From NCBI GenBank assembly GCA_964512225.1, contig CAZEKB010000023.1, forward strand, positions 6,771 to 70,770: a stretch of 64,000 bases of DNA, read 5' to 3'. This document shows, in pieces, positions 1 to 39,323 of this stretch. This DNA is from an uncultured Rickettsiales bacterium. GTDB taxonomy: Bacteria > Myxococcota_A > UBA796 > UBA9615. Position numbers and translations under genes: made by a program. Numbering within the stretch: the stretch's first letter is position 1; every line of letters starts with the position of its first letter. Under the pieces are notes generated by a model. That model did not search any database, had not been told where the DNA came from, and saw only the letters and a list, made by a program, of their open reading frames with translations.

Positions 1-94
1 CGGGGGCCGCATGCCGCTGACCGAGTACGGCCTGCCCGACACGGACCTCGACGCCATCGAGGAGTGGATCCTCGCGGGGGCTCCGAAGGACTAG
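1..94 (+). CDS. C-terminal fragment of an upstream gene (…MPLTEYGLPDTDLDAIEEWILAGAPKD*); function unknown
   Basis: A frame open from the window edge to TAG at 92-94 with normal, non-Arg-rich composition. It converges on the minus-strand lipoprotein gene and their stops overlap by 3 nt. Confidence 0.3.
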   Translation, partial: GGRMPLTEYGLPDTDLDAIEEWILAGAPKD

Positions 95-3000
95 GGGATG
101 TACTCGATCTCCACGCGACCGATGGGCCCGGCCGCGTCTTCGACGGCTACGGGGCCGGGCGCCCCCAGGGGGGTGGTGCCGGTGGGGTTCAGGGCGAGGT
201 TGGCGTCGTACTCCAGGCGCCACACCTGAACCGTCGCGCTGCCGTAGGGCACGACGACGGGGGTGACCCCGGGGACCGTCGAGTCCTGGCTGTACATCGA
301 GTGCATCGGCGTATTGCCGCGGCCCCCGAGGACGCCGATCTTCTCCCCGGCCAGCACCGGGATGTTCACGACCATCACGTCGGCCGCGGGCTGGAGCGCG
401 GCGTAGAAGAGGCTGATCGGCGTCGTGGTGCTGCTGCCCGCGCCCCAGGTCGAGGGGAAGACCAGCACCTCCACGTTCTGGAAGTCGCCGGCGTTCGAGT
501 CGGCGGGGATCCACAGGGTCGTGATCGTCATGTTGGCCGGGGCCTCGAACCACATGCCCCGCGTCTCGGTGTCCTGCGAGTAGGTCGAGCCCGCGGCCCC
601 CGGCCCCAGCGTGAGGGCCGGCTGCACGGTGACCGAGTCCGTGCCCGAGGGGCCCGGATCGAAGCCGTCGTGCCCGTTCATGGAGCAGGTCCACAGGTCG
701 TTCACGAAGGTGAGGCTCTCGTCGATCGTCTGGCCCGTCTGGAGGACCGACTGACCGTTCCGCGTCCAGAAGCGCGCCGTGGAGACCGGGTCGCCGTCCG
801 GGTCGATCGCGGGCGTCGTGGCGAGGCACGTCAGGTCGTTGAGCACCCCGGGGACGTCCGGGGTGATGTCGACCACGGGAGCCAGCGGCGGGGAGTTGGC
901 GACGGTGAGGTGCGTGCTCTCCTGCCACGCCCCGTAGTCCCAACCGTCGTGCGGTCGGGCCCGGCACCAGACCGAGTCCCCCCGGTCGAAGAACGTGGCG
1001 GTCCCGGTCTGGATCGCGCCCCCGTCGAGGCCGGCCGTCGTCGCCACGACGGTGCCGCCGATCACCCCCACCGGCTGGACGAGCCACTCGTACTCCCACG
1101 TGACCGCGTCGGGGTCGGGATCGGTGATCACCCCCGTAGCGCAGGTCGCCTGCGTCTCCGTGTAGAGGATCGCGGGGACCACGGCGGGCGCGGTCGCCGC
1201 GGGCACCGTGTTGAGGATCGGCACGACGTTGGAGAGCACCTCCGGGCCGACCTCCGTGCCGTCGTCGATGGTCACCCCCACCCAGACATCGTCGAAGTGG
1301 TCGAAGTCGGCGCCGGTCAGGGCCGCGGTCGTCGCGCCGGCGATGGCCGTGGGGGGGATCGTCGCGTTGTCGCGGTACCACTGGTAGGCCACCGTGGTGC
1401 TCGCGCCCTCGGGGTCGACGCCCCCGGTGTAGGCCGCCTGCAGCGGGGTGTCCTCGTAGCCCGGCGTGGGGGTCACGGTCACGGCCGTGGGCGCCGCGGG
1501 CACGTTGATGAACGCGGGCGCCGACAGGAACATCGGGCCGATGTCGGCGCCGTCCCAGGGCGTGAGCTCGCAGTGCAGCGGGTCCCCGGCGACGGCCGAC
1601 GTCCCGGGCACGAAGGTCGCGCTCGTGGCGCCCGCCACGGCGGCGCCGCTCACCACCCACTGGTAGAGGTAGCCCTCGGGGTCGCCGTCGACGTCCTGCC
1701 AGCCGGTGGTGGTGAGGCTGAAGGTCGTCGCCGTCGTGCCCAGGGTGGGGGATGCGGTCGCCGACCCGCCCACCGGGGGCGTGTTGTCGATGATTACGTC
1801 CGCCGTGCCCGGCGGCCCGTAGGTCTGGCCGTCGAACGCGCGGATGAGGACCTGCCAGGTCTCGGCCTTCGAGGTGGCGGTGTCCGGGATCGACTGCAGC
1901 CCGTCGTAGGCGGGGGCCGGGACGCCGTCGATCGTCCACGAGTACGCGTAGGTCAGGGGGTCGTTCTCGGGGTCGTTCGCGGGCGTCGCCACGGACGCGG
2001 TGAGCGTATCGAGGGTCGTGGGCCCCGGCGGGCCCAGGGCGGCCACCGGGGCGTTCGGGGCGCCGTTGACGAGGATCGTCACCGAGTCCGTCGCGGTGCT
2101 CCCGATCGAGTCGGTGACCTCGAGCGTGATCAGGTGCGCGCCCCCGACGAGCGTGTCCGGCAGGACCTCGTCGTCGAGCACGCCCGACGGCTCGGCCGCC
2201 TTGTCCGCGACGAGGCCCTCGCGATCGCTGAACCACTCGACGGTCAGGTCCTCGTTCGCGTCCTCCCGGTCGGTGGCGAGGCCCCCGAGGACGAGCGCGA
2301 GGTTGCTGCTCGCGGGCGTGGTGGCGGTGGGGGCCGTGATCTCGGCGACGGGGGGCTCGTCCACGACGATGTCCACCCGGTCCGTGCAGTCCAGCCCGAG
2401 GTCGTCCACGACGACGAGGGTCAGCTCGTGCGCGCCGACGCTCAGGGTCGGCGCGGTGAGGGCGACGTCCCCGTCGTCGTCCGGGGTCGCGTCGCCCAGG
2501 GGGCCGTCGACGTCGCTGGAGAAGCTCACCGCGAGCACGGGCCCGGGGACGTTGGGATCGGTCGCCTCGGCGAGCAGCTCCAGGTCCGGCCCGTGGGGCA
2601 CCACCGCTCCATCGAGCGGCGAGAGGATCGCGCAGTCCGGGGGCTGATTCGGCCCGCCGACCTCGACCGCGACGCCCGCGGTCCCGATGTTGCCGTGGGT
2701 GTCCACCACCCGCGCCTGCAGGACGTGGCGGCCGATCTCGAAGCCGCGCTCGATCGTCGTCACGCCCTCGGCGTCGGGCTCGAGCCCCTCGGCCAGACCC
2801 ACGCCGTCCTCCACCGCCCAGAACACGCGCAGGTCCTGGGGGTGGTCCTCCGTGTCGGACACCCGCGAGCGCAGGTTCAGGGGGCGGTCCACGTAGTAGA
2901 AGCCGTCGCTCCGGGGGGTGTCGATCACGATGACCGGGGCGTCGCCCGAGAGCACCGTCACGAGCACCGTGTCCGTGCACTGTTCGCCGTCGGGGTCGGT

Positions 3001-3327
3001 GATCGTCGCCGTGATCGTGTGGGCGCCGGGGGCGAGGTCGTCGGTGCTGAAGGCGTGGTCGCCGTCGTCGTTCAGCGAGCCCGACGGCAGCGCGTCGCCG
3101 AGGCTGGACGTCCAGGCGAACCCGATGAGGTTCGGGGTCGTCCCCCCGTCGCTCGCGTGGACCTCGAAGGCGACCTCGTCACCCACGTACACCGTGGCGC
3201 CGTCCTCGCCCGGCGCGACGATGAAGCAGGTCGGCGGCCCGGCTCCGGCGAGCTGTCCGCAGCCGGCGAGCGCGAAGCTCGCGGCGACCACCCCGATCCC
3301 CCCCGCGGCGGCGAGGAGGCGTCTCAA
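91..3327 (-). CDS. Giant (1079 aa) cell-surface lipoprotein with many Ig/cadherin-like β-sandwich repeats (recurring DPDGD / DGD motifs)
   Basis: TTG start at 3327-3325 with a GGAGG 6 nt upstream. N-terminus MRRLLAAAGGIGVVAASFALAGC carries a lipobox (LAGC). The rest is a long Thr/Pro/Asp/Gly-rich repeat region. The annotated ORF upstream of the TTG is Arg-rich junk. The start overlaps the stop of the β-barrel gene (TTGA). Confidence 0.8.
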   Translation of the reverse strand: MRRLLAAAGGIGVVAASFALAGCGQLAGAGPPTCFIVAPGEDGATVYVGDEVAFEVHASDGGTTPNLIGFAWTSSLGDALPSGSLNDDGDHAFSTDDLAPGAHTITATITDPDGEQCTDTVLVTVLSGDAPVIVIDTPRSDGFYYVDRPLNLRSRVSDTEDHPQDLRVFWAVEDGVGLAEGLEPDAEGVTTIERGFEIGRHVLQARVVDTHGNIGTAGVAVEVGGPNQPPDCAILSPLDGAVVPHGPDLELLAEATDPNVPGPVLAVSFSSDVDGPLGDATPDDDGDVALTAPTLSVGAHELTLVVVDDLGLDCTDRVDIVVDEPPVAEITAPTATTPASSNLALVLGGLATDREDANEDLTVEWFSDREGLVADKAAEPSGVLDDEVLPDTLVGGAHLITLEVTDSIGSTATDSVTILVNGAPNAPVAALGPPGPTTLDTLTASVATPANDPENDPLTYAYSWTIDGVPAPAYDGLQSIPDTATSKAETWQVLIRAFDGQTYGPPGTADVIIDNTPPVGGSATASPTLGTTATTFSLTTTGWQDVDGDPEGYLYQWVVSGAAVAGATSATFVPGTSAVAGDPLHCELTPWDGADIGPMFLSAPAFINVPAAPTAVTVTPTPGYEDTPLQAAYTGGVDPEGASTTVAYQWYRDNATIPPTAIAGATTAALTGADFDHFDDVWVGVTIDDGTEVGPEVLSNVVPILNTVPAATAPAVVPAILYTETQATCATGVITDPDPDAVTWEYEWLVQPVGVIGGTVVATTAGLDGGAIQTGTATFFDRGDSVWCRARPHDGWDYGAWQESTHLTVANSPPLAPVVDITPDVPGVLNDLTCLATTPAIDPDGDPVSTARFWTRNGQSVLQTGQTIDESLTFVNDLWTCSMNGHDGFDPGPSGTDSVTVQPALTLGPGAAGSTYSQDTETRGMWFEAPANMTITTLWIPADSNAGDFQNVEVLVFPSTWGAGSSTTTPISLFYAALQPAADVMVVNIPVLAGEKIGVLGGRGNTPMHSMYSQDSTVPGVTPVVVPYGSATVQVWRLEYDANLALNPTGTTPLGAPGPVAVEDAAGPIGRVEIEYIP

Positions 3328-4205
3328 GATTCGCCTCCGGGGGCGGGCGCCGGCGGCACGGGGGGGAAGGCCCCGAAGCGCACCGACCAGCGCATGTCCA
3401 GGGCCACCGCGGCGCGCTCCCGGCCGACGATCGGGATCGTCGCGCCCAGCTCGAACCCGAACCGGTGGCGGTCCGACAGGCGCAGGCCGATGGCGGCGGC
3501 GACCATCTCCACCGGCGCCTGGTACCCGAAGTTGCCCTGCAGGTCGACGACGATGGCGAGCGCCGGCAGCGGCCGCAGCTCCACGCCGAAGTTGCCCGCG
3601 AAGCCCGCGCGCGGTCCGGCCGCCCCCGCGCTGATGGCGGCCGACGCCATGAGGCCGACCTGGCCGCGCAGGTGGACCGTCGGGTGGACCCGGCCGAGCA
3701 CGCCGACGCCCACGTCGAAGGCGATGGGCCGGGCGTTCTTGTAGAGCCAGGTGGTGGGGAGGACGACCTTGCCCGTCACCCCGAGCGTCGCCCGCTCGAG
3801 GTCGAGGAAGCGGCCCGTGCCCCCCAGCGAGAGGTGTCCGAGCCCGATGAAGCTCGCGCCCAGGGGAGCGAGCACCTGCTCGTAGCGGAAGGCCTCCCAG
3901 CTCGCGAAGATCTCGATGCGCTCGTGCACGGCGTAGCTGCCGTCGAGCGTGACCGCGCCCTTGAGTCGCCCGTAGAAGTTGGCGGCGTCGGCGATGAGCG
4001 ACAGCCCGCCCACCACGCCGAACTCGTTGCGGCCGCACAGCCTGCGCGCCGTGCCGAGGTCCCCGTCGAGCACGCCGGACTGGAGCGCGCCCTGGCCGAG
4101 GCCGTAGGAGAAGTCGTCGCAGGGGCCCGCCTGCGCGGTGCTCGGGGCGGCGAGCAGCGCGGCGAGCGCGAGGGTCGCGAGGGCGAGGGTGGTGCGCGGG
4201 CTCAT
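3324..4205 (-). CDS. Outer-membrane β-barrel-like protein (293 aa) with a Sec signal peptide
   Basis: ATG at 4205. Signal peptide MSPRTTLALATLALAALLAAPSTAQA, then alternating hydrophobic β-strand patterns. Near-C-terminal …RWSVRFGAF is followed by a Pro-rich tail. ATGA overlap with the upstream PHP gene and TTGA overlap with the downstream lipoprotein gene. Confidence 0.7.
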   Translation of the reverse strand: MSPRTTLALATLALAALLAAPSTAQAGPCDDFSYGLGQGALQSGVLDGDLGTARRLCGRNEFGVVGGLSLIADAANFYGRLKGAVTLDGSYAVHERIEIFASWEAFRYEQVLAPLGASFIGLGHLSLGGTGRFLDLERATLGVTGKVVLPTTWLYKNARPIAFDVGVGVLGRVHPTVHLRGQVGLMASAAISAGAAGPRAGFAGNFGVELRPLPALAIVVDLQGNFGYQAPVEMVAAAIGLRLSDRHRFGFELGATIPIVGRERAAVALDMRWSVRFGAFPPVPPAPAPGGES

Positions 4206-7168
4206 CGGTCGGCTCCGTCGAAGCCGTCGCCGTCGCGATCGATCAGCAGCGGGTTGGTGAACGACATGGGGAAGCCGTGCTTGACCACGGTCTGGAACAG
4301 GTAGCCGGGCGACGTTCGATCCGTGGGGATCGGCGGGTCCGTGACCGGCCCCACGTCTTCGAGGCACTCGGTCCCCGGGTCCTCCTCCAGGCCCTCGACG
4401 TCGCGCCAGTCGATCGTCCCGTCGCGGTTGTTGTCCCCGGTGTCCGGGAAGCCGTCGCAGTCCAGGTCGGCGTTGGGCTCGAGGGGGACGCCCGCTTCGA
4501 CCGAGATCCAGGCGTCGCCGCTCGCGGGGAGGATGTCGGCGAGGGGGATGCTCGTATCGAGGCGCAGCAGCCCGTCCTCGCCGAGCGGATCGGCGGGCTG
4601 GGCGAGCTCGGTCGCGAAGGTGCGGACGACCTCGCTGTTCACCACCACCCGGACCTCCGTGATCGGCACCCACGGCGCCCCGGTCACGGTGATGTCGAGG
4701 GTCGCGTCGGCGCCGGGCACGAACCCCTCGGTCGACGGCGTGCGCACGGCGCCCCCGTCGTCCGTGGTCGCGACCTCGACGACGGGTCCGTTGGTCCCCA
4801 TCATCCGGCCCTCGCGGATCGCCCGGTTGAAGCGGGCCTGGTCGAAGGCGCCCACCTCGTCGTCGCTCCAGACCAGCGTGCGGGGCGTGCCCAGCACGTT
4901 GCCGCCGAGGCTGTGCGAGTCGCTGTTGGCGGTCCCCGCGCGGACCACGCCCTGGTCGAGCAGGTAGTGCCAGTAGGCCCGGTAGCGCACCAGGTACTCG
5001 TTGTCGGTCCCGTTCATCACCTCCTGCGCGTGGTAGTCCGCGTTGGAGAAGGCGGCGCCTTCGGGGACGGCGTCGAAGAGGCCCGGCAGGGAGCCCTCGG
5101 GCGCGTCCGCGAGGTTCTGGTTCGCGTCGATCGCCATGGCGGCGGCCCACCCGGTGTCGCGTCCGAAGTCGAACCCGCTCATGGGGTGGTTGAGCTGGAT
5201 CACGCCGGTGTCCGCGGGCCAGCCCACCTCCTGCGCCCGCGTGAACAGCTCGCCGGGCAGGGCGAGCTCGTCCCAGGGGCCGCCGTTGTAGGGGAGCGTG
5301 GGGTCGTACGTGAAGGGCCAGAGGTTCCAGTGGCCGATCACCTGGGGGTACTCGGGATCCTCGATCAGGTCGAAGAGGATGTGCCCGGTCGTCTCCATGC
5401 CGACCATCAGCTCCATGCGGTCGTAGGCCTCGAGGTCGAGCATGGCGGTGGCGTAGTCGCCCACGGCGTCGTGATCGGTGGCGGCGATGACGTCGATCCG
5501 CGACGCGAGGAACGCCGCGACCCGCGGGTGATCGGGGATCGAGGCGTCGAACGACTTGCTCCCGTGCACGTGGAAGTCGGCCGACAGCGCGCCCGCCGGC
5601 AGCAGGTCGAGCGACGTCACCGCGAGGTCCGCCGTCGCCTCTCCGCCCGCCGTCACGGTCACGCCGCGGGCGGCCGCGAGCGTGGAGAAGGGCCCGGTGG
5701 ACGTGAACACGTCGTAGGTGCCGGGGAGGATCGCGACGGTGGAGGCGCCGTCCGGGGGCACGAGGACGCGGTTGCAGGCCGGGGAGCCGCCGTGGGGCGG
5801 GCCGAGGAGGGGGGCGCACTCGTGGAAGACGCCGTGCATCGCGGCCGCGACGGCGTCGTGGGTGGCGTCGTCGGCGGGGTGGACGAAGGCGAGGAGGTGG
5901 TCGTCCGCGCCGTCGACCGTGCCGTCGATCGTGAGCAGGCCGACGGCGGGGATCGTGATGTCGACGGTGCCCGAGGTCGCGTCCACGGTGGCGGCCGCGG
6001 GCGGGGTCCGAACGCCGAACACCTCGATCTCCACGAGGTAGTCGCGGTCCGGGGGCACGGCGACGCTCCAGGTGCCGTCGCCCCCGGGGCGGGTCTGCGT
6101 CCACGGGACGCGCTCCTCGACGGGCGTGGCGGCCGTCCCCTCGGTCACGAGCACGACCGCGCGCAGGCCCTCGGGCAGCTCCGTGCCGTCGGCGCCGTCG
6201 ATCGTGATCGTCCCCCCGAGCGTGGCCACCGCGTCGCCCCGCGTCACCATCGCGAGCTCCACGGCGGGGGCCAGGTCGGGGCCCTCGGTCACGCCGATGA
6301 AGCGCTCGTGGACCATGTAGTCGCGCGGCGCCACGATGCGGTTCTTGCGGCCCACGAGGGTCAGGTCCTCGCTCTGCAGGCCGGAGAGGTCGGGCTCGTC
6401 GTCGTTGCAGGAGACCGCGAAGTAGGTGGCGGCGGGCGCGGTGTGCTCGCCCGCGACCATGAACGGCATCGTGTGGATCGCGTCGGGCAGCGTGGAGAGG
6501 CCGAAGGAGGGGTGCTCGAACCCGCGGCCCGCGACGGGGCTGAAGCCGACGTTCTCCCGGCCGCCCCAGTAGAAGGCGTCGGACATGGTCCAGGACCAGG
6601 TGTCGGCCTCGAGGTTCACGACCTCGGTGCGCACGCGGACGCCGGGATCGCAGGTCCTCATCTCGTAGCGGGTGGCCACGGGCACGTCCGGGCGGCCCTG
6701 GAGCGTGCCCCGGAACTGCACGCCGACGATGCCCGGCTCGCGCAGGGGCAGGACCTCGGTGTAGTGGAAGGCCTCGTCGGGCAGGACCCCGACACCGTGC
6801 TCGATGTGCCGGAGCGAGTCGTTGTCGTCGCCGGTGGTCGACAGGTCGAGCAGAACGCCGCCCGTGGGGGCGATGTAGTGGGGGTGGTCCAGGGCGTCGA
6901 TGACGGCCGTGGCCCGGCCGTTGCTCAGGAGGATGTCGCCGACGGCCCCGAGAGAAGCGATCCCGCCGGGGACCTGGTCCTCGGAGTCGATGAACTCGAC
7001 GACGAGCCCGGAGGTCGCCTCGGGGCAGTCCCCGAAGGTGAGCTCGGCGCACGGCGACGGGACGATGCAGCCGTCCGCGGGGTCGAGGCACCCCTCCTTG
7101 GCACAGCCGGCGAGGTGGAGCGGGAGGACGAGGAGGAGCAGCGCGCCGAGCAGAGAACGTGGAGACAT
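4202..7168 (-). CDS. PHP-domain (polymerase/histidinol-phosphatase-like metal-dependent phosphoesterase) lipoprotein, 988 aa
   Basis: ATG at 7168. N-terminus MSPRSLLGALLLLVLPLHLAGC has a lipobox. PHP signature HVHGSKSFDASIPDHP…IAATDHDAV. The long upstream extension in the tool ORF is Arg-rich. Confidence 0.75.
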   Translation of the reverse strand: MSPRSLLGALLLLVLPLHLAGCAKEGCLDPADGCIVPSPCAELTFGDCPEATSGLVVEFIDSEDQVPGGIASLGAVGDILLSNGRATAVIDALDHPHYIAPTGGVLLDLSTTGDDNDSLRHIEHGVGVLPDEAFHYTEVLPLREPGIVGVQFRGTLQGRPDVPVATRYEMRTCDPGVRVRTEVVNLEADTWSWTMSDAFYWGGRENVGFSPVAGRGFEHPSFGLSTLPDAIHTMPFMVAGEHTAPAATYFAVSCNDDEPDLSGLQSEDLTLVGRKNRIVAPRDYMVHERFIGVTEGPDLAPAVELAMVTRGDAVATLGGTITIDGADGTELPEGLRAVVLVTEGTAATPVEERVPWTQTRPGGDGTWSVAVPPDRDYLVEIEVFGVRTPPAAATVDATSGTVDITIPAVGLLTIDGTVDGADDHLLAFVHPADDATHDAVAAAMHGVFHECAPLLGPPHGGSPACNRVLVPPDGASTVAILPGTYDVFTSTGPFSTLAAARGVTVTAGGEATADLAVTSLDLLPAGALSADFHVHGSKSFDASIPDHPRVAAFLASRIDVIAATDHDAVGDYATAMLDLEAYDRMELMVGMETTGHILFDLIEDPEYPQVIGHWNLWPFTYDPTLPYNGGPWDELALPGELFTRAQEVGWPADTGVIQLNHPMSGFDFGRDTGWAAAMAIDANQNLADAPEGSLPGLFDAVPEGAAFSNADYHAQEVMNGTDNEYLVRYRAYWHYLLDQGVVRAGTANSDSHSLGGNVLGTPRTLVWSDDEVGAFDQARFNRAIREGRMMGTNGPVVEVATTDDGGAVRTPSTEGFVPGADATLDITVTGAPWVPITEVRVVVNSEVVRTFATELAQPADPLGEDGLLRLDTSIPLADILPASGDAWISVEAGVPLEPNADLDCDGFPDTGDNNRDGTIDWRDVEGLEEDPGTECLEDVGPVTDPPIPTDRTSPGYLFQTVVKHGFPMSFTNPLLIDRDGDGFDGADR

Positions 7169-7209
7169 GGGGAGATCATCCTGCGCCAGAGCGCCCGTGA
7201 CAACGTCGT

Positions 7210-8595
7210 TCACTGCGACGCGGTCCGGGCCGCCTCCAGGTTGGCGGGGGTCCACATGGGCGACGGCCACCAGACCTCGGCCACGGGATCGGCGTACATG
7301 CGTCGCCATCGGGACGGGTCGAGCGGGGGGACGGCGCCCGTCGGCCACAGCAGGACGCCGGTGCGGAAGCGGCCCACGGCCTCGTCGAAGGTCGAGGCGT
7401 CTCCCGTGCGTCGGCGGAGCAGGTCGGCGACGTCGGGGCCGAAGACCAGGCGGCCGTCGGCGAGGACGGTGGACGTGGGCCACAGGCGGTAGAGCGCGTA
7501 GCCGGACCAGGCGCCGGTCGTATCGATGCCCGCGGGCACGCCCGTCCGCTCGAGGAAGTCGCAGGCGGCCACGGGGAAGCGGTCGCGCTGGAGGACGTCG
7601 AACCGCTCGTCGAGGGACCACCGGCCCCCGGCCCGGGCCCCCGCGACGACGACGCAGGCGGCGATCAGGGCGGCGGCGGCCCGACGGGACGGGGGTCGGC
7701 GGACGAGGAGGAGCCCGACGGGGATCGCGGCGAACCAGGCCCACCGGGCAGGGCCGCAGGCGGCCAGCGCGCAGCCGATCGCGGTCCACTTCTCCACGTC
7801 GACCGCGTCGTCGTCGCGCGCCAGGAGGACGGCCGATACGAGCCCCGCGCCGACGCCCAGGAGCATGACCATCCCCCACCATCCCTCCCGCAGGTACACG
7901 CGCGTGCCCCGCAGCTCCGGCACGAACTCGGCGGGCCACTCGGCGTGGGAGGCGACGGCCCCGGCGAGCCCGTCCCAGGCGCCGGGCGCGCTCGCGATGG
8001 CGACGGCCCCCAGGGCGAGGATCCCGAAGGCCCGGCGGGTGCGCAGGGAGACGGCCCAGGCGCCCACGAGGGCGAGCCACCACAGGGAGGAGACGGCGTG
8101 GAGGTTGGCCCAGACCGCGGCGAGCCCCACCGCGGCGAGCTCGGCCACGCCCAGCGCGCGTCGGCGGACCAGCCCCACGAGGCCGACGACGAAGAGGAGC
8201 TCGAACACGTGCGGCCGGGCGCGGACGCGGTCCTCGAACAGCACGAGCAGCACGGCGGCGGCGACGAGCGCGGCGCCGGTGGAGCCCGACGCCCGGCGGA
8301 CGATGCCCGCCCAGGCCCCCACCGCGGCGGCGATCACGGCGGCGTGCAGGGCGCGCAGACCGGCGGGGCCGGCGAGGTCGTCGAGGCCCGACAGGAGGAG
8401 CTCGTAGAGCCACTGGAACGTCGACCAGGCGGCCTCGGGGTGGGCGGCGCTGAAGACGTCGGTGGTGGGGATGCCGCCCGCGCGGATCGCGCGCCCGACG
8501 GCGACGTGCCAGAAGACGTCGATGTCCCAGAGCGGGCGCCACACCCAGGCGAGGGCGACGGTCGCGACGCCCAGGGCGAGCGCCCACGCCCTCAT
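7210..8595 (-). CDS. Polytopic integral membrane protein (about 11 TM helices plus a C-terminal soluble domain); possibly a GT-C-type glycosyltransferase
   Basis: A 461-aa ORF with many hydrophobic helices and an Arg/Trp-rich C-terminal domain. It lies between the methyltransferase and the PHP lipoprotein on the same strand, 13 nt after the methyltransferase stop. Confidence 0.6.
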   Translation of the reverse strand: MRAWALALGVATVALAWVWRPLWDIDVFWHVAVGRAIRAGGIPTTDVFSAAHPEAAWSTFQWLYELLLSGLDDLAGPAGLRALHAAVIAAAVGAWAGIVRRASGSTGAALVAAAVLLVLFEDRVRARPHVFELLFVVGLVGLVRRRALGVAELAAVGLAAVWANLHAVSSLWWLALVGAWAVSLRTRRAFGILALGAVAIASAPGAWDGLAGAVASHAEWPAEFVPELRGTRVYLREGWWGMVMLLGVGAGLVSAVLLARDDDAVDVEKWTAIGCALAACGPARWAWFAAIPVGLLLVRRPPSRRAAAALIAACVVVAGARAGGRWSLDERFDVLQRDRFPVAACDFLERTGVPAGIDTTGAWSGYALYRLWPTSTVLADGRLVFGPDVADLLRRRTGDASTFDEAVGRFRTGVLLWPTGAVPPLDPSRWRRMYADPVAEVWWPSPMWTPANLEAARTASQ

Positions 8596-8608
8596 GCCGG
8601 CGACGCGC

Positions 8609-9352
8609 TCAGTCGGTCCGCCGGGCGAGGGCGATGATCGACGCCCCGGCGGGCAGGTCGACGGCCTTCATGAGCTTCGACTCGACCTTGAGCGCCCCGA
8701 TGAGGAGGTTGTTGATCCAGTCCGGGACCTCCACGTAGGAGGCGCCCTTCTCGTGGGACGTCGGGTCGAGGCCCTGGGCGATGCGGAAGCCGATGATCCC
8801 GAGCAGCGGGATGGAGATGGCGTAGCTGCGGCGGATGACGGAGAAGCCGCCGCGGTTGAGCAGGCTGTGGAGCTCCGAGGCGACGTAGCGGCGGCGGTGG
8901 CCGAGGGCTTCGTCGTGCACGGACCACAGGAACCGGTAGGCGGGGACGGTGAGGAGGACGAGGCCGGACGGGCGCAGGACGCGCCGCATCTCGGCGAGGC
9001 CCTCGGCGTCGTCGTCCAGGTGCTCGATGACGTCGAAGGCGCACGCGAGGTCGAAGCTGCCGTCCTCGAACGGGAGCGCCAGCGCGCCGCCCTCGGCGAC
9101 CCGGTCCGGCCCGAGGCCCCGCTCCCGGCACGCGTCGAGGCCGGGGCCGGGGGGCTCGACACCCACCGCGCGGCCGAACTGATCGAGCAGCTCGAGGTTG
9201 CGGCCGGAGCCGCACCCGACGTCGACGATGTCCATCGAGGCCTCGGGCCCGACGTACCGCTCGAGCGTCCGGCGGATGAGGTACCGGCGGCCCACGTGCC
9301 ACCAGTACTTCTCCTCCATCCGCGCCATGCGATCCTGTTCTACGGCGTCCAT
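8609..9352 (-). CDS. Class I SAM-dependent methyltransferase (Methyltransf_11-like)
   Basis: Motif I VDVGCGSGRN, an acidic post-I residue, and LRPSGLVLLTVP (motif III). The start is taken as MDAVEQDR… at 9352. Alternative in-frame ATGs lie at 9328 and 9319. Confidence 0.8.
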   Translation of the reverse strand: MDAVEQDRMARMEEKYWWHVGRRYLIRRTLERYVGPEASMDIVDVGCGSGRNLELLDQFGRAVGVEPPGPGLDACRERGLGPDRVAEGGALALPFEDGSFDLACAFDVIEHLDDDAEGLAEMRRVLRPSGLVLLTVPAYRFLWSVHDEALGHRRRYVASELHSLLNRGGFSVIRRSYAISIPLLGIIGFRIAQGLDPTSHEKGASYVEVPDWINNLLIGALKVESKLMKAVDLPAGASIIALARRTD

Positions 9353-9452
9353 CGGCGGGGACTCTACGCGTGCCCGGGGGGTCCGCACCAGTCGGCGGGG
9401 CCCCCGGGGGGGGCGAGGGCAGCCGACGCGGCAGCGGGCTATCATCGGCGCC

Positions 9453-10187
9453 GTGACCAGCTCCGACATCGACGGCAACCCCGCGCTCACCCTCGTCGTG
9501 CCCCTCCTGGACGAAGAGGGGAACGTCGAGTCCGTCGCCGAGGATCTCCTGTTCGCGTTCCGCACCGCCGACATCCCGCTCCGGCTCCTGCTCGTCGACA
9601 ACGGCAGCAAGGACGGGACCCGCGCCAAGGTGCGGGTCCTCGAGGCGAACAACGACGAGGTCCGCGGCATCTACCTCGACGAGAACGCGGGGTACGGCGG
9701 CGGGATCCTCGCGGGCATGGCCGAGGCCGACACCCCGCTGCTCGGCTGGATGTGGGGCGACGCGCAGATCGAGGCGGGCGACGTGGTCCGCGTGTACCGG
9801 CGCCTCCTCACCGACAAGGCCGACCTCGCCAAGGCCCGCCGCGTCCAGCGCGTCGACGGCTGGCAGCGCAGCATCGTGACCCGCGTCTACAACCTCGCGA
9901 CCCTGTGGCTCTTCCACGTCCCCAGCGTCGATACCAACGGCTGCCCCAAGATCTTCACCCGCGCCGCGTGGGAGGAGCTGGCCCCGAAGTCCACCGACTG
10001 GTTCCTCGACCCCGAGGTCATGATCGGCTACGGCCGCAAGGGCCTGAAGCTGGCCGAGGTCGACGTCCTCGCGAAGCCGCGGACCAAGGGCGTCAGCAAG
10101 GTGGGCACCGGCACCGTCGCCGAGTTCATCGTCAACCTGCTGCGCGCCCGCGCCAAGGTGAACAAGGGCGAGGCGGACCTGCGGTGA
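9453..10187 (+). CDS. GT2 family polyprenol-phosphate sugar transferase (DPM1/GtrB/ArnC-like)
   Basis: LTLVVPLLDEEGN…LLLVDNGSKDGT…ENAGYGGGILAGM…R.DGWQRSIVTRVYN…VDTNGCPKIFTR. A GTG start at about 9453 is inferred from the domain boundary; the 255 nt of tool ORF upstream of it is Arg-rich. The stop overlaps the rfbF start (GTGA). Confidence 0.7.
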   Translation: MTSSDIDGNPALTLVVPLLDEEGNVESVAEDLLFAFRTADIPLRLLLVDNGSKDGTRAKVRVLEANNDEVRGIYLDENAGYGGGILAGMAEADTPLLGWMWGDAQIEAGDVVRVYRRLLTDKADLAKARRVQRVDGWQRSIVTRVYNLATLWLFHVPSVDTNGCPKIFTRAAWEELAPKSTDWFLDPEVMIGYGRKGLKLAEVDVLAKPRTKGVSKVGTGTVAEFIVNLLRARAKVNKGEADLR

Positions 10188-10978
10188 GCGATCCGCGCGT
10201 CGTCATCCTCTGCGGCGGGCAGGGGACGCGCCTCCGCGAGGAGACCGAGTACCGCCCCAAGCCCATGGTCAGCGTCGGCGGGCGGCCCCTGCTGTGGCAC
10301 ATCATGCGGATCTTCGCCCACCAGGGCCTGGACAGCTTCGTGCTGTGCCTGGGCTACAAGGGCGAGATGATTCGGGATTACTTCCTGAACTACCGCGAGC
10401 AGACCGCCGACGTCACCGTCAAGTTCGGCCGCGACGGTCGCAACAACGACCTCACCTTCCACGCCCCCCACGACATCGAGGGCTGGGAGGTCACCCTCGC
10501 GGACACCGGGGCCCTCACCCAGACCGGCGGCCGCATCCACCGCGTGCGCGACTACCTCGGCGACGGCCCCTTCCTCATGACCTACGGCGACGGCGTCGCC
10601 GACATCGACATCCAGGCGCTGCTCGCCCACCACCGGGCCTCGGGCAAGCTCGCCACCGTCACCGGCTTCCGCCCCCTGTCGCGCTTCGGGGTCATGGAGC
10701 GGGACGGCGACGGCAACGCGGTGGGGTTCCGGGAGAAGCCCCGGATGAAGGACTGGATCTCCGGCGGCTTCTTCGTCCTGGAGCGCGGGGTCCTCGACTA
10801 CCTCGACGACGAGTGCGTCTTCGAGCGCGAGCCCCTGAGCCGCCTCGCCGCCGACGGGCAGCTCGCCGTGTACACCCACGAGGGCTACTGGCAGTCGATC
10901 GACACCTACCGCGAGTACCTCGACATGAACCGCCGGTGGGACGCCGGCGACCGGCCGTGGGCGGTGTGGGAGCGATGA
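10184..10978 (+). CDS. rfbF: Glucose-1-phosphate cytidylyltransferase
   Basis: VSDPRVVILCGGQGTRLREETEYRPKPMVSVGGRPLLWHIMRIFAHQG… The alignment to RfbF/DdhA is strong. GTG start overlaps the GT2 stop. Confidence 0.9.
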   Translation: MSDPRVVILCGGQGTRLREETEYRPKPMVSVGGRPLLWHIMRIFAHQGLDSFVLCLGYKGEMIRDYFLNYREQTADVTVKFGRDGRNNDLTFHAPHDIEGWEVTLADTGALTQTGGRIHRVRDYLGDGPFLMTYGDGVADIDIQALLAHHRASGKLATVTGFRPLSRFGVMERDGDGNAVGFREKPRMKDWISGGFFVLERGVLDYLDDECVFEREPLSRLAADGQLAVYTHEGYWQSIDTYREYLDMNRRWDAGDRPWAVWER

Positions 10979-11958
10979 GCTTCTGGGGCGGACGCTCGGT
11001 CCTCGTCACCGGCGCGAGCGGCCTCCTGGGCGGCGCCCTCGTGCCCGCGCTCCTCGATCGGGGCGCCCGCGTCTCCGTGCTGCTGCGCGACGACGTGCCC
11101 GACTGTCGCCTCGTGCGATCGGGGGACATCGACCGCGTCATCCGCGTCCGGGGAGACATCACCCGCGTCGAGGAGGTCGAGCGCGGCCTCGCCGAGCGCG
11201 AGGTCCAGGTCCTCTTCCACCTCGCCGCCCAGGCCATCGTGGGCACCGCCCGTCGGTCGCCCTGGCAGACCTTCGAGTCCAACGTCCGCGGCACGTGGAA
11301 CGTCCTCGAGGCGGCCCGCCGGGTCGGGACCTGCCGCAGCATCGTCGTGGCGAGCTCGGACAAGGCCTACGGCCCCAGCGACGACCTGCCGTACCGCGAG
11401 ACGCACCCCCTCGCGGCCGTCGGCCCCTACGACGCCAGCAAGGCCATGACCGACATCGCCGCGCAGTCCTACGCCGCGACGTACGACCTCCCGCTGACCA
11501 TCGTGCGCGCGGGCAACCTCTACGGCCCCGGCGACCTGCACTGGAACCGGCTCATCCCCGAGATGATCCGCGCCCGGCTGAGCGGGGAGACGCCGGTGCT
11601 CCGCTCGAGCGGCCACGCCACCCGCGACTGGCTCTTCGTGGACGACGCCGTGGACGCCTACGTGCGCCTCGCCGAGCGCTCCGGCGACGCGGACGTCCGG
11701 GGCCAGGCCTTCAACGTCGCCCCCGGGGAGCCCGCGTCGGTGCTCGCCGTCTGCCGGGCGATCGACGACGCCCTCGGCATCCACGAGCCGCCCCACGACG
11801 TCCGGGGCACCGCCGAAGCAGACGGCGAGATCCCCGACCAGTCCCTCGATCCGAGCAAAGCCGAGCGGCTCCTGGGGTGGCGCGCCGCGACGGACCTGCA
11901 GGCGGGCATCGCCGCCACCGTCGACTGGTATCGGGCGCTGCTGACCCCGACGCCGTAG
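10975..11958 (+). CDS. rfbG: CDP-glucose 4,6-dehydratase
   Basis: SVLVTGASGLLGGAL…YDASKAMTDIAA… (SDR extended fold, YxxxK). ATGA overlap with rfbF. Confidence 0.9.
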   Translation: MSFWGGRSVLVTGASGLLGGALVPALLDRGARVSVLLRDDVPDCRLVRSGDIDRVIRVRGDITRVEEVERGLAEREVQVLFHLAAQAIVGTARRSPWQTFESNVRGTWNVLEAARRVGTCRSIVVASSDKAYGPSDDLPYRETHPLAAVGPYDASKAMTDIAAQSYAATYDLPLTIVRAGNLYGPGDLHWNRLIPEMIRARLSGETPVLRSSGHATRDWLFVDDAVDAYVRLAERSGDADVRGQAFNVAPGEPASVLAVCRAIDDALGIHEPPHDVRGTAEADGEIPDQSLDPSKAERLLGWRAATDLQAGIAATVDWYRALLTPTP

Positions 11959-12624
11959 TCAGAACAAGCTGCCTTGCGCCTCCGCGGCTACGATCCGTCG
12001 GGCCGTCTCCCACTTGGTGCGCACGCACGCCGGCCACGCCCGGTTCTCCGCCCACCGCTTCTTCAGGAACGCCACGGTGTGCGGGTCGCCCGGGTAGCCG
12101 GACCCCAGGGGCTCCCCTTCGAACGCCTCGATGCGGCGCAGCTCCGCGTCCCGGTGGACCTTCGCGAAGATCGACGCCGCCGAGCAGCACGGGTGGGTGT
12201 CGTCGGCGCCGTTCTCGGCCACGATCACCATCCCCCACACCCCGCGCGCGCTCAGCCGGATCGTGATGTCTTCGACGTACCCGGGGATCTGCTTCGGCGG
12301 GACCGGCGCGTCGAGCACCAGGATGTCCGGCCGCAGCTCCACCGCGAGGTCGACGATCACCTCCTTGCCGAGCACGTTCAGCGACTTGCTGTCCAGGATG
12401 GCGGGGGACAGCTCGACCACCCGGTGCGCGAGGATCGTCTCCGACATCGCGAGCGCCTCGTCGCGCAGCCTGACGCGCTTGTCCGCCGGGACCTTCTTGC
12501 TGTCCCGGAACCCGGCCGTGCGGAGCCGCTTCTCGCGGGTCGCGTCCACGAGGCAGGCCCCGAAGACCATCGGCCCCAGGACGCAGCCGCGCCCCGCTTC
12601 GTCGATCCCCAACCGTGTCGCCAT
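11959..12624 (-). CDS. rnhB: Ribonuclease HII
   Basis: MATRLGIDEAGRGCVLGPMVFG… DEAGRG is the catalytic motif. 221 aa. The exact start is ±1 nt because of an indexing ambiguity. Confidence 0.9.
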   Translation of the reverse strand: MATRLGIDEAGRGCVLGPMVFGACLVDATREKRLRTAGFRDSKKVPADKRVRLRDEALAMSETILAHRVVELSPAILDSKSLNVLGKEVIVDLAVELRPDILVLDAPVPPKQIPGYVEDITIRLSARGVWGMVIVAENGADDTHPCCSAASIFAKVHRDAELRRIEAFEGEPLGSGYPGDPHTVAFLKKRWAENRAWPACVRTKWETARRIVAAEAQGSLF

Positions 12625-12678
12625 GGGCGAAGGGTAGCGGCGCGCGGTAGAACCGGGGGCCCCGCCGGGAGGTTCTTC

Positions 12679-15006
12679 ATGTCCGTTCGCGCCGTCCTCG
12701 CCCTCGCCGCCGTCGCCGTCCTCGCCGCGTGCCCCCCCGAGCCCGCCCCGACCGACGACGACGACGCCGCCCTCGACGACGACGACATGTACGAGGAGCT
12801 CGGCATCCCCGACGACCGGGGCATGGCCGTCCCGTTCCTCGGGGAGGAGCCGACCCTCTCCGTATTCCCCGCGCGCCCCCACTCCGAGATGGAGGTCGCG
12901 ATGGTCCTGGACCTCGAAGGCGCCGTCTCCGCGACGCTCGACGTCTCCGGCCCCGGCTGCGGCGGCTTCCGCCCCCTGTCCGGCGAGCTCCCCCTCGAGC
13001 AGACCGCCCTCGCGGGCGCCCAGGGGGAGTGCTTCTTCAGCGCGCTCATCACCACGCCCGACGAGGACCTGATCGAGGAGGCGCGGTTCGTCGTCCAGCC
13101 CCTCGAACCGGACGTGCCCGACGTGGGCGTCGTGGGCGGCATCCTCCGGTACGACGCGTTCCCCGAGCCCTCCCCGGACGCGCCCCCCCTGACCACCCTG
13201 ACCGTGCCCGAGCTCGTCGACGTGCGGGAGCCCGTGGTGGTGAGCTTCGACCGCGACGAGGCCGCCGACGCCCGCGGGGTGCTGGTCGCCGTCGACGGAT
13301 ACGACGCCTGGTGGTACCTGCCCATCGAGGACCCGACCCTCTGGGACGCCTCCGTCGAGCTCGAGCTCGATCCCGAGCTGCTGAATCGCCTCGGCGAGCG
13401 CCTGAACGTCCAGATCCAGGTCGCCCTCCTCGTGGGCGTCGGCAGCCTCGTGACCCCGCCGCTGTCGCGCGCGCTGTCCGTCGGCGGGGTCCCGGGCGAG
13501 GTCGGGGTCGTCGTCGAGTGGGGCACGAACGCGGACATCGACCTGGTGGTGATCGGCCCCGACGGCGAGCGCGTCAGCATCGCCGGGAGCAACGGCCCGG
13601 GGACGCACAGCGGCGACCAGGGCTGCACCGGGTCCGCCCCCTACACCGAGACGATCTCCTGGGCCCCCGGGGTCTCGCTGCCCGGCGTCTACGACGTCGA
13701 GGTGCAGGTCACGAACGACTGCGACTACTTCTTCACCCCGGTCACCCTGTCGATGGTCTTCTGCGGGGCGGGCTCGCCCACCGTCGAGCAGCTCGAGCTC
13801 GGCGTGACGGGGGGGATCCATCGGACCTCCTTCACCAGCGACTGCGAGGCCACCGTGAGCGGACGGGTGCGCTACCAGGACTTCCCGGTCACGACCGGGG
13901 GGTGGGGCGCGAGCAACATGCTCCCCGCGCGGAACGTGGACGTGGAGGCCGTGCGGGGGACGGACGGCGCGGTCCTGGGGCGGGCCACGACCGACGCGGC
14001 GGGCGACTACCGCATCGACTTCTTCAACGGCGGCGACCCCGCCTACACCGTGCGCGTCGTGGCCGAGCACGTGGGCCCCACCGTGTCCCAGCGCGTCCAG
14101 ACCAACGCGGGGAGCCTGTGGGTGTGGAACTCCGTCGATACCTTCGACAGCTCCGCGAACCCGGTCGAGACGGACGTCGACTTCGAGATCCTGGGCGTCG
14201 ATGGAGCCGCCGTCCTGAACATCTTCGACCAGGGCGTCACCCTCGCCGCCTACGCCCGCACCCTCTCCGGGCGACGGCCGTCGGACTCCACGTGGCACTG
14301 GACGTCGGGGCAGCTGGCCAACCACCTCAACGGGTTCGGCGGCGGCGGCTCCCACTACACCCGCGACAGCAACCTGTGGATCCGCGGCGCGTCGACCCAG
14401 GGCGAGATCAACAACGGCATCCCCAACAACACGGACGAGTGGGACGACACGGTGATGGCCCACGAGTACGGGCACTTCGTCGAGGACGACTACTCCATCG
14501 GGGACAGCCCCGGCGGCCAGCACTTCATCAACGGGTACTCCGACCCTCGCCTGGCGTGGAGCGAAGGCTTCGCCACCTGGTTCGGTCAGGCCGCGCTGGG
14601 CAGCCCGTGGTACCTCGACCGCGCCGGGAACGTGTGGTCGGTCCGCTACAACGCCGAGTCGGGCGGGGGCATGCCGCTGGGCAACAGCCCCGCGCAGCTG
14701 TCGGGTCAGGTGTGCGAGGCGGTCGTGACGATGATCCTGTGGGACCTCTTCGATACGACGAACGAGGTGTTCGACTCACTCCAGGGGCAGACGGCGGGCA
14801 TCTGGGCGTCGTTCGGCACGTACCTGCCGGGCGCGAACTTCGCGGACCGCGGCGTGGCGGGTCGCGACCTCGTGGACTTCGTGGACGGCCTGCGCTGCCT
14901 CGGCGCGATCGCCGACGGGACGGTCCTGGACGGCCTCACGGGCAACGTCCAGACCCGGCACCAGATGTCCTACGACTGGCCGGTGCTCGCCTCCTGCGTG
15001 CCCTGA
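12679..15006 (+). CDS. Secreted zinc metalloprotease lipoprotein (HExxH: MAHEYGHFVED), 775 aa
   Basis: GGGAGG SD 6 nt upstream of the ATG. N-terminus MSVRAVLALAAVAVLAAC (lipobox), then a poly-Asp stretch and the HEYGH zinc-binding motif. Confidence 0.75.
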   Translation: MSVRAVLALAAVAVLAACPPEPAPTDDDDAALDDDDMYEELGIPDDRGMAVPFLGEEPTLSVFPARPHSEMEVAMVLDLEGAVSATLDVSGPGCGGFRPLSGELPLEQTALAGAQGECFFSALITTPDEDLIEEARFVVQPLEPDVPDVGVVGGILRYDAFPEPSPDAPPLTTLTVPELVDVREPVVVSFDRDEAADARGVLVAVDGYDAWWYLPIEDPTLWDASVELELDPELLNRLGERLNVQIQVALLVGVGSLVTPPLSRALSVGGVPGEVGVVVEWGTNADIDLVVIGPDGERVSIAGSNGPGTHSGDQGCTGSAPYTETISWAPGVSLPGVYDVEVQVTNDCDYFFTPVTLSMVFCGAGSPTVEQLELGVTGGIHRTSFTSDCEATVSGRVRYQDFPVTTGGWGASNMLPARNVDVEAVRGTDGAVLGRATTDAAGDYRIDFFNGGDPAYTVRVVAEHVGPTVSQRVQTNAGSLWVWNSVDTFDSSANPVETDVDFEILGVDGAAVLNIFDQGVTLAAYARTLSGRRPSDSTWHWTSGQLANHLNGFGGGGSHYTRDSNLWIRGASTQGEINNGIPNNTDEWDDTVMAHEYGHFVEDDYSIGDSPGGQHFINGYSDPRLAWSEGFATWFGQAALGSPWYLDRAGNVWSVRYNAESGGGMPLGNSPAQLSGQVCEAVVTMILWDLFDTTNEVFDSLQGQTAGIWASFGTYLPGANFADRGVAGRDLVDFVDGLRCLGAIADGTVLDGLTGNVQTRHQMSYDWPVLASCVP

Positions 15007-22366: not shown

Positions 22367-22370
22367 AGGC

Positions 22371-24736: not shown

Positions 24737-24740
24737 GACC

Positions 24741-27632: not shown

Positions 27633-27717
27633 CCGCGACACCCGCTCCTTCGTCGCTTATGTTGTAGGCGTTCAGGATCCCCGCCCGCCGATCGGCGAGC
27701 GGTCTGCAGGAGTTCGA

Positions 27718-39264: not shown

Positions 39265-39323
39265 GGACCCCAAGAGTAGACGACGACGGTCCCGGGGGCG
39301 GTGTCGGCGGGCATGATGCGACC

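Follow-up and report, generated by a model that had tools for sequence, protein, structure and literature searches.

Relation to described lipid-carrier glycosylation systems

Lipid-carrier glycosylation by a glycosyltransferase of family 2 (GT2) together with a membrane glycosyltransferase of the GT-C fold underlies polymyxin resistance, O-antigen serotype conversion, the decoration of teichoic acids, and protein O-glycosylation. Here we describe an eight-gene locus at the beginning of a 64,000-nucleotide stretch of DNA (hereafter called the window; positions 6,771 to 70,770 of contig CAZEKB010000023.1, assembly GCA_964512225.1) from an uncultured bacterium placed in Myxococcota_A by GTDB. 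On the plus strand, a GT2 gene is followed by the cytidine diphosphate (CDP)-sugar gene rfbF and a gene for a short-chain dehydrogenase/reductase (SDR), while the minus strand encodes an S-adenosylmethionine (SAM) methyltransferase, a polytopic membrane protein of 461 aa, a lipoprotein with a PHP domain, an outer-membrane barrel, and a giant lipoprotein (Table 1). The probable role of this array is to turn CDP-glucose into a lipid-carried sugar, which the 461-aa protein would receive as a GT-C enzyme; the neighboring genes of surface proteins look like separate additions. To the broader reading that the locus is a lineage-specific composite of four modules, in which the product of a conserved sugar cassette would be used by the GT-C protein on an acceptor in the cell envelope, we assign a probability of about one half.

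The closest solved relative of the GT2 family is ArnC of the Arn pathway (E = 6e-18 over the full length, including the GxSK motif), and as in that pathway, enzymes that tailor the sugar nucleotide (ArnA and ArnB there) are encoded together with the GT2 and with a GT-C partner (ArnT there). Unlike the Arn pathway, the window locus would draw on CDP chemistry through RfbF instead of uridine diphosphate (UDP) chemistry, and it has no equivalents of ArnD, ArnE, or ArnF. Its GT2 lacks the two C-terminal transmembrane (TM) helices of ArnC and reads WGD where ArnC reads DAD, and its GT-C protein lacks the signature of PMT_2, the Pfam family that includes ArnT and supplies the usual neighbor of the cassette in other lineages.

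GtrA/GtrB/GtrC and other three-component systems of periplasmic glycosylation have been described (PMC11127046; PMC7389260). GtrB is the second-best solved relative of the window GT2 (E = 1e-14), and both loci pair a polyprenyl phosphate glycosyltransferase with a GT-C enzyme on the opposite face of the membrane. Compared to the Gtr systems, no flippase gene was found at our locus, a CDP-sugar is the probable donor, the GT2 is peripheral and TM-less, and the GT-C protein is unrelated in sequence to Gtr-type GT-Cs and matches no Pfam family.

In the Pgf system of Streptococcus mutans, the GT2 PgfS, the membrane proteins PgfM1 and PgfM2, and the SDR PgfE modify the adhesins Cnm and WapA (PMC5856776). 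Among NCBIfam models, that of PgfS (NF047588) matches the window GT2 best (E = 1e-10), but with 41 bits against a cut-off of 500 our GT2 is not its equivalog. In either system, a GT2 goes together with an SDR and polytopic membrane proteins, and a gene for a large, adhesin-like surface protein stands beside this machinery. They differ in that the window SDR resembles dehydratases and not epimerases, in that a cytidylyltransferase and a methyltransferase are present, and in that the host is Gram-negative with a lipoprotein in place of an LPXTG adhesin.

Human DPM1 and the catalytic domain of Ppm1 are short and TM-less. The window GT2 shares this build with the mycobacterial Ppm1/Pmt and eukaryotic DPM1/PMT-TMTC pairs of protein O-mannosylation, and some relatives of the window GT-C protein carry C-terminal tetratricopeptide repeats (TPR) as do TMTCs, whereas the donor nucleotide and sugar differ, the GT-C protein itself has no detectable PMT or PMT_2 signature, and no partner that would anchor the GT2 in the membrane was identified. 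The sugar-nucleotide genes, finally, are reminiscent of the CDP-3,6-dideoxyhexose pathway behind Salmonella and Yersinia O-antigens (RfbF and RfbG, also known as DdhA and DdhB). Common to both are an RfbF equivalog and an SDR with catalytic Asp-Lys and YxxxK motifs that aligns along its whole length with the solved dehydratases 1RKX and 1WVG. The window SDR is, however, about 30 aa shorter and falls under the family cut-off, no DdhC/DdhD (E1/E3) and no downstream reductase or epimerase are present here, and the product would feed a polyprenol phosphate GT2 and not a Leloir-type O-unit transferase. What sets the locus apart from Arn, Gtr, Pgf, and Ppm1/Pmt systems is thus its supply of a CDP-sugar, a TM-less GT2 with variant nucleotide and metal motifs, a GT-C family without annotation, and the lack of a linked flippase.

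A polyprenyl phosphate GT2 coupled to CDP-glucose genes

The sole Pfam match of the GT2 is to the generic Glycos_transf_2 family (PF00535, 50 bits). When a profile of its own family is compared with the PDB, archaeal DPMS (6e-11) comes next after ArnC and GtrB, the top seven sequences all belong to these three types, and the next solved GT2s score 1e-6 or worse. This points to a peripheral member of the ArnC/GtrB/DPM1-type clade of polyprenyl phosphate glycosyltransferases. Enzymes of this clade carry C-terminal TM helices (two in ArnC and GtrB, four in archaeal DPMS), and in this respect the window GT2 departs from them, containing no hydrophobic 19-mer and ending at residue 244 directly after an amphipathic segment. 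At the metal/diphosphate motif, the family sequence MWGDxQ aligns with LDADLQ of ArnC: an invariant Trp takes the place of the first Asp, and the final Asp and the Gln never vary. The nucleotide motif DDGS of ArnC, GtrB, and DPMS appears as an invariant DNGS (VDN for VDD). At the C terminus, PRTKGVSKV aligns with EREFGESKY of ArnC; the family consensus is PRxxGxSK, with R210, G213, S215, and K216 invariant in an alignment of 23 sequences. The WGD-for-DxD and VDN-for-VDD changes are compatible with an altered nucleotide specificity, which we regard as possible.

With 313.5 bits against TIGR02623 (cut-off 300.25), covering residues 5–262 of 264, RfbF is predicted to be a true glucose-1-phosphate cytidylyltransferase at the equivalog level. 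The SDR reaches 183.7 bits with TIGR02622 (RfbG) and remains under the cut-off of 278.45. Its top PDB sequence match is a UDP-glucose 4-epimerase (119 bits), with the dehydratase 1RKX at 114 bits, yet an epimerase is the less likely assignment because the catalytic SDK and the N-terminal FWxG match dehydratases. The alignment with 1RKX and 1WVG runs end to end from the N-terminal SFWxG on (a motif of the FWxGxxVxVTG type, SFWGGRSVLVTG), and SSDKAYG and YDASK of the SDR correspond to TSDKCY and YSNSK of the two dehydratases, where the epimerase 7YS8 reads SSGGSIYG. All 16 cassette-linked SDR orthologues keep the dehydratase motifs, and we consider the protein to be probably a divergent short form of an RfbG-like CDP-glucose 4,6-dehydratase.

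The class I SAM methyltransferase, with matches to Methyltransf_11, Methyltransf_23, and Methyltransf_25, is ancestrally the fourth gene of this GT2-rfbF-SDR cassette. It directly follows the SDR gene in a sister genome (L008; L063 in metagenomes; 94% identity) and in L076 (73% identity), and homologues of 31–38% identity lie near the cassette in L112, L123, and L139.

We sampled eighty metagenome loci encoding GT2 relatives and counted those with room to show rfbF. The latter was found within 200 nt after the GT2 gene at both loci with at least 80% GT2 identity, at 9 of 13 loci with 55–80%, and at 14 of 47 loci below 55%; GT2-rfbF loci span 42% to 72% GC. The usual next gene encodes a dehydratase-like SDR, and genes of a second SDR and a methyltransferase often come after it. 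In independent lineages, cassettes lie beside GT-C genes of the PMT_2 or PMT type, namely in L112 (directly upstream of the GT2 gene; 53.7 bits), L121 (two copies), L123, L133, and the P0069 contig, while in L082 and L067 relatives of the window's own GT-C family are found next to GT2-rfbF (hhalign 93%, E = 3e-7, 358 columns). Since many distant lineages share the coupling of GT2 with rfbF (and the SDR), often beside GT-C genes, it seems reasonable that the GT2 would load a CDP-sugar onto polyprenol phosphate. This had been suggested by a first-pass annotation made from the letters of the window, whose identification of the GT2 as a DPM1/GtrB-like enzyme and of rfbF agrees with the profile matches above; its call of the SDR gene as rfbG fits the conserved motifs of CDP-glucose 4,6-dehydratases and falls short of the family cut-off.

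Two further GT2 contexts were observed outside this cassette. In L135 (8955–11988), a GT2 gene whose product is 42% identical is flanked by genes for an SDR and for an NDP-hexose C-methyltransferase of the TylC3 type (Methyltransf_13/14); rfbF is missing there. This is a further hint that the GT2 family handles modified deoxysugars. Among annotated plasmids, a search with the GT2 returned only a 33%-identical haloarchaeal GT2 encoded beside a GT39 gene; this match illustrates the general pairing of GT2 and GT-C enzymes and not this cassette.

The 461-aa membrane protein represents a very large GT-C family

No family in Pfam (E ≤ 0.01) or NCBIfam matches the 461-aa membrane protein. Its AlphaFold2 (AF2) model, built with 27 homologues, has a mean predicted local distance difference test (pLDDT) score of 93.4, and the top 17 Foldseek matches in the PDB are all GT-C enzymes (DPY19, PglB, STT3, AftA, AftB, ALG9, and EmbC). 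The model thereby identifies the protein as a GT-C-fold membrane glycosyltransferase, as the first-pass annotation had surmised in calling it GT-C-like. A transporter and an O-antigen ligase were also considered and were rejected on the strength of the same 17 best structural matches. The acidic residue expected in the first extracytoplasmic loop of GT-C enzymes is present and conserved: directly after the first TM helix stands the motif WDIDxFWH, in which D26 is kept in at least 90% of sequences and H30 is invariant, even including relatives at 22–30% identity (the L082 relative reads SPDTWWH there). RPH, WANLH, and DGR motifs follow, and the C-terminal part forms an alpha/beta periplasmic domain. 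The protein belongs neither to PMT_2 (PF13231) nor to PMT (PF02366), and hhalign gives a probability of 0.3% when its family is compared with the bona fide PMT_2 neighbor of the cassette in L112. Its fold and its adjacency to a polyprenyl phosphate GT2 suggest that it may use a polyprenyl-phosphate-linked donor.

In an exhaustive profile search, the family counts 34,665 representatives at 50% identity with E ≤ 1e-3, of which 11,356 are full-length matches at E ≤ 1e-30. Ten sampled members show no Pfam or NCBIfam match on their membrane part, some of them with C-terminal TPR repeats. Named hosts are Dormibacteraeota, Myxococcota, and Acidobacteriota, where the proteins are labeled "hypothetical" or "tetratricopeptide repeat protein".

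The contexts of individual relatives are varied. One relative of 30% identity is grouped with YfhO, a GT2, GtrA, a methyltransferase, and an epimerase. Another (P0037, 29% identity) is encoded inside a Tad/Flp pilus cluster (L147, 3114–14083), between tadG-like and prepilin-peptidase/rcpC genes and with two Flp pilin genes nearby, which suggests pilin glycosylation by some members of the family. In L082 (11510–14451, minus strand), the gene of a 678-aa homologue beside GT2-rfbF overlaps by 4 nt with that of a 302-aa lipoprotein with a Pro/Glu-rich linker; this is another pairing of a GT-C enzyme with a lipoprotein, but with a different lipoprotein than in the window. The window itself encodes a second GT-C-type enzyme at 34648–39273 (minus strand), a 1541-aa protein with about 19 TM segments and a PMT_2 domain (48 bits). 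As PMT_2-type GT-Cs are the usual neighbors of the cassette elsewhere, this protein could equally use the cassette's lipid-linked sugar.

A proposed route from CDP-glucose to the cell envelope

In the route that we propose, RfbF would make CDP-glucose, in line with its family-level identity, and the SDR would most likely convert it into CDP-4-keto-6-deoxy-glucose, as its motifs indicate. At the cytoplasmic side of the inner membrane, the GT2 most likely loads polyprenol phosphate with this CDP-activated hexose, which may be methylated, reduced, or otherwise modified. The lipid-linked sugar would then be flipped across the membrane by some flippase, and the GT-C enzyme would transfer it at the periplasmic face to an envelope acceptor, be it a protein or a glycolipid/lipopolysaccharide component. 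In terms of modules, the conserved cytoplasmic cassette of GT2, RfbF, dehydratase-like SDR, and SAM methyltransferase would thus be followed by the GT-C enzyme as the second, by the PHP-metallohydrolase lipoprotein and the 12-stranded outer-membrane barrel as an independent third, and by the Ig-repeat surface lipoprotein as the fourth. A more far-reaching version, in which the GT2 family would be the first polyprenol phosphate glycosyltransferases to take a CDP-4-keto/6-deoxy (maybe methylated) hexose and would feed the GT-C family of about 35,000 members for targets among envelope proteins or glycolipids, is put forward only tentatively, and we would sooner doubt than assert it in this full form.

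Several results weigh against the proposed route. On the side of the cassette these are, besides the subthreshold RfbG score of the SDR, that no 4-reductase gene is found in the cluster, though many other cassettes carry a second SDR, and that no flippase came to light: the cluster leaves no room for a further coding sequence, there is no gene of the GtrA type (PF04138), no small open reading frame (ORF) with multiple TM segments lies in 1–12.7 kb, and the GtrA protein of L007 has no blastp match among all window ORFs. We found no description in the literature of a CDP-sugar-dependent polyprenyl phosphate GT2 or of this cassette. Moreover, in many Myxococcota (L096, L108, and L144) the RNase HII gene is followed by the GT2 gene with no rfbF, so the GT2 family is not always accompanied by CDP-sugar genes. 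Such loci would fit a reading in which the GT2 uses a conventional UDP- or guanosine diphosphate (GDP)-sugar, with RfbF, the SDR, and the methyltransferase serving an unrelated cytoplasmic pathway for an O-antigen or a secondary metabolite and sharing no more than their location with it. To our knowledge, every characterized polyprenyl phosphate GT2 or carrier-loading enzyme, ArnC, GtrB, and DPMS among them, uses UDP- or GDP-sugars, and the extra GT4 or GT1 genes of some distant cassettes could take the CDP-sugar. We nonetheless find a conventional donor distinctly unlikely, given that the stop/start overlap of GT2 and rfbF is kept across genomes of 42% to 73% GC and that the GT2 is the sole cytoplasmic glycosyltransferase available for a CDP-sugar in the window cluster, with no other one in the cassettes of marine Myxococcota either; the invariant VDN and WGD changes would likewise fit an altered nucleotide preference.

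On the side of the GT-C enzyme, the points against the route come from its gene neighborhoods, which we surveyed for relatives encoded at 55 loci in genomes and at several in metagenomes. All seven neighbors accompany the GT-C gene only in the window's own contigs and in the one sister genome (L008; L063 in metagenomes), whose GT-C protein is 81% identical, so that this subfamily adjoins the cassette in just two closely related genomes. None of the seven partners lies within 10 kb of 13 orthologues with 46–57% identity, which sit in a recR/dnaX-type context, and a GT2 gene is missing from the same range around some 40 more remote relatives. The adjacency might then be incidental, with the GT-C enzyme using a general donor such as polyprenyl phosphate-mannose or -glucose made elsewhere and the cassette product destined for another GT-C enzyme, such as the PMT_2-type 1541-aa protein, or for none. 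The absence of GT2, rfbF, SDR, and methyltransferase genes from the surroundings of the 13 orthologues would fit this view, as would the place of PMT_2-type GT-Cs as the commonest cassette neighbors in other lineages and the encoding of one such protein, that of 1541 aa, about 25 kb away in the window. GT-C genes are, however, often unlinked from the synthases of their donors, as established for PMT/Ppm1 and Emb/Aft, and orphan status is therefore weak evidence. In L067 and L082, genes for relatives of this GT-C family stand next to GT2-rfbF, and in L008 the methyltransferase and GT-C genes abut or overlap within one co-directional array. For these reasons we hold a merely incidental adjacency to be unlikely, though it deserves to be kept in mind beside the proposed transfer of the cassette's sugar by the GT-C enzyme.

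The PHP-barrel pair and the giant lipoprotein

The 988-aa lipoprotein matches NF038032 (CehA/McbA, PHP-type) with 100.3 bits, above the cut-off of 80, over residues 529–860, and has the metallohydrolase motifs HxH (HVHG), TDH (TDHD), and DSH (NSDSH). The 293-aa protein has a signal peptide, and its AF2 model (pLDDT 82.6) contains 13 strand segments. FapF, the COG4313 channel, and autotransporter beta-domains lead its Foldseek matches (E = 3e-8, TM-score 0.55–0.6), at only 11–13% sequence identity and with no match to a family hidden Markov model. The modeled structure indicates an outer-membrane barrel of about 12 strands that is nearest to FapF, which does not imply membership in a Fap system. 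The PHP domain and the barrel had both been predicted by the first-pass annotation, and both predictions stand.

Homologues of the barrel (45–47% identity) are each preceded by a homologue of the PHP lipoprotein (50–52%) in two Myxococcota-like contigs, L145 (6354–10834) and L146 (7032–10876). One gene on the opposite strand lies between the two in L145, while in L146 they are directly adjacent with a 4-nt overlap. No GT-C, methyltransferase, GT2, or giant lipoprotein gene is found by the pair in either contig. The pair is therefore an independent two-gene module, and the PHP lipoprotein is a more plausible partner of the barrel than the giant lipoprotein.

The 1078-aa lipoprotein has matches to Big_13, REJ, and Big_7 and carries Ig-like/PKD/REJ-type repeats. 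It contains 11.5% Thr and 9% Pro, and 43% of the 30 residues 516–545 are Ser or Thr. Its gene is the last of the run, with a convergent gene downstream in identical contigs, and adjoins the other genes only in L001-3 (window contigs) and L008/L063. This protein invites the idea of an adhesin operon like pgf-cnm, in which the GT2 and GT-C enzymes would specifically glycosylate the 1078-aa lipoprotein and the barrel would export or display it. In its favor, both the window and L008/L063 show these genes side by side with translational coupling, the lipoprotein is rich in Thr and Pro with its Ser/Thr stretch, the barrel matches include the polypeptide transporter FapF and autotransporter beta-domains, and the GT-C relative in the Tad/Flp locus L147 and the TPR domains of other relatives hint at protein substrates; the Pgf system provides a precedent (PMC5856776). 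Against this, the barrel is paired with the PHP lipoprotein and not with the giant one in L145/L146, and the cassette and its GT-C partners occur in other lineages with no homologue of the giant lipoprotein. The association itself is limited to two genomes in which the proteins are 65–94% identical, so that its conservation carries little information. We consider such a dedicated adhesin operon very unlikely and prefer the composite of modules with an envelope acceptor left general.

This comparison of homologous neighborhoods also separates the parts of the first-pass annotation, which had cast the giant lipoprotein as a plausible acceptor and the barrel as its possible export partner. For the GT2 and the CDP-sugar genes the association is kept elsewhere. 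For the acceptor and export roles it is absent; the giant lipoprotein is a possible acceptor that no comparative evidence backs, and both roles are unsupported given that the GT-C link is seen in two genomes only, that the PHP-barrel pair occurs alone elsewhere, and that 13 GT-C orthologues stand alone. Nor is the five-gene run from the methyltransferase to the giant lipoprotein conserved as a unit, as L008 and L076 show the methyltransferase to be an ancestral member of the sugar cassette and the PHP-barrel pair is found by itself.

Gene layout and a recent inversion

The window has 73% GC, so long spurious ORFs are common in it. Genes were called with a plot of GC content at third codon positions (GC3 frame plot) and an analysis of start codons, and the eight-gene layout agrees with independent gene calls in public records of identical contigs from marine metagenomes (Table 1). 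The eight genes and six junctions are as the first-pass annotation had them; it had rightly recognized the giant protein as a lipoprotein and had given its length as 1079 aa instead of 1078 aa. On the minus strand, the genes of the giant lipoprotein and the barrel overlap by 4 nt (TTGA), as do those of the barrel and the PHP lipoprotein (ATGA), with gaps of 41 nt between PHP lipoprotein and GT-C and of 13 nt between GT-C and methyltransferase. On the plus strand, GT2/rfbF (GTGA) and rfbF/SDR (ATGA) both overlap by 4 nt. Overlaps of this length are frequent in the rest of the window (about 6 of about 25 same-strand junctions), and the tight packing is therefore an ordinary operon-like structure and not exceptional.

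Table 1. Coordinates of genes and other features of the locus (positions in the window).
Feature	Position	Strand	Remarks
Giant lipoprotein, 1078 aa	91–3327	minus	TTG start; lipobox LAGC (...FALAGC)
Signal-peptide protein (outer-membrane barrel), 293 aa	3324–4205	minus	
PHP-domain lipoprotein, 988 aa	4202–7168	minus	lipobox LAGC (...HLAGC)
Sigma-70-like site TTGTCA-17-GATGAT	7175–7203	minus	in the 41-nt gap before the PHP gene
Polytopic membrane protein (predicted GT-C fold), 461 aa	7210–8595	minus	
SAM methyltransferase, 247 aa	8609–9352	minus	
Divergent intergenic region methyltransferase/GT2, 100 nt	9353–9452		created by the inversion; breakpoint 9373/9416
Inverted 2.5-kb block (GT2-rfbF-SDR plus 37 bp upstream)	9416–11933		inverted relative to its flanks, compared with L008
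GT2, 244 aa	9453–10187	plus	
rfbF, 264 aa	10184–10978	plus	
SDR, 327 aa	10975–11958	plus	
RNase HII gene	11959–12612	minus	PF01351; synteny marker

The sister genome L008 has all genes in one direction, in the order GT2 (6750), rfbF, SDR, methyltransferase, GT-C, PHP lipoprotein, barrel, and giant lipoprotein. There, rfbF and SDR each overlap the preceding gene by 4 nt, the methyltransferase follows after an 11-nt gap, barrel and giant lipoprotein again each overlap by 4 nt, and gaps reach up to about 40 nt. In a blastn comparison with L008, 9416–11933 of the window aligns in one sense and both flanks (4200–9373 and 11975–14000) align in the opposite sense. In more distant marine Myxococcota, the GT2, rfbF, and SDR genes come after the RNase HII gene and share its strand; in L076 the methyltransferase gene continues this series. 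The three-gene block of the window was inverted in place between the RNase HII and methyltransferase genes in a recent, lineage-specific event, and it is this inversion, and not a design feature, that gives the locus its divergent look. A search for inverted repeats gave only imperfect, GC-rich matches of the background type, and none of these lies at the breakpoints 9373/9416 or 11933/11975. Since the inversion, the run from methyltransferase to giant lipoprotein would need a promoter of its own, which would lie in the newly created intergenic region.

At the other end of the block, the convergent genes of the SDR and RNase HII meet without a single intervening nucleotide (stops at 11956–11958 and 11959–11961) and with no terminator-like structure, probably as a by-product of the inversion. 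A terminator scan found no sites resembling intrinsic terminators in 1–12700, a type of scan that is uninformative for Myxococcota. With the same limitation, the site in the gap between the GT-C and PHP genes is the sole sigma-70-like match in 12.7 kb (0.2 expected), a weak signal; lying at the boundary of the GT-C gene and the PHP-barrel pair, it is a possible candidate for an internal promoter of the PHP-barrel module.

Further along the window, five consecutive genes on the plus strand (21488–28515) encode lipoproteins or secreted proteins of 292, 597, 191, 963, and 265 aa. In their sizes and N-termini they correspond to a block of proteins with no Pfam match that is encoded divergently upstream of RNase HII-GT2 in L068, L076, L082, L143, and L144, and in the genome of the window this block is displaced by about 9 kb.

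Implications

For the annotation of high-GC genomes, the locus is a warning: a tightly packed run of overlapping genes can be a mosaic that was assembled only recently from independent modules. The 461-aa protein, being well modeled, offers a concrete entry to a GT-C family that is very large and lacks a model in Pfam or NCBIfam. If our reading of the cassette is true, the conserved coupling of a carrier-loading GT2 to CDP-glucose chemistry would add a new class of donors to lipid-carrier glycosylation and could provide new lipid-linked deoxysugars for glycoengineering. And should the combination of a CDP-hexose-using GT2 with this large GT-C family hold true, it would represent a widespread and so far undescribed branch of extracytoplasmic glycosylation.

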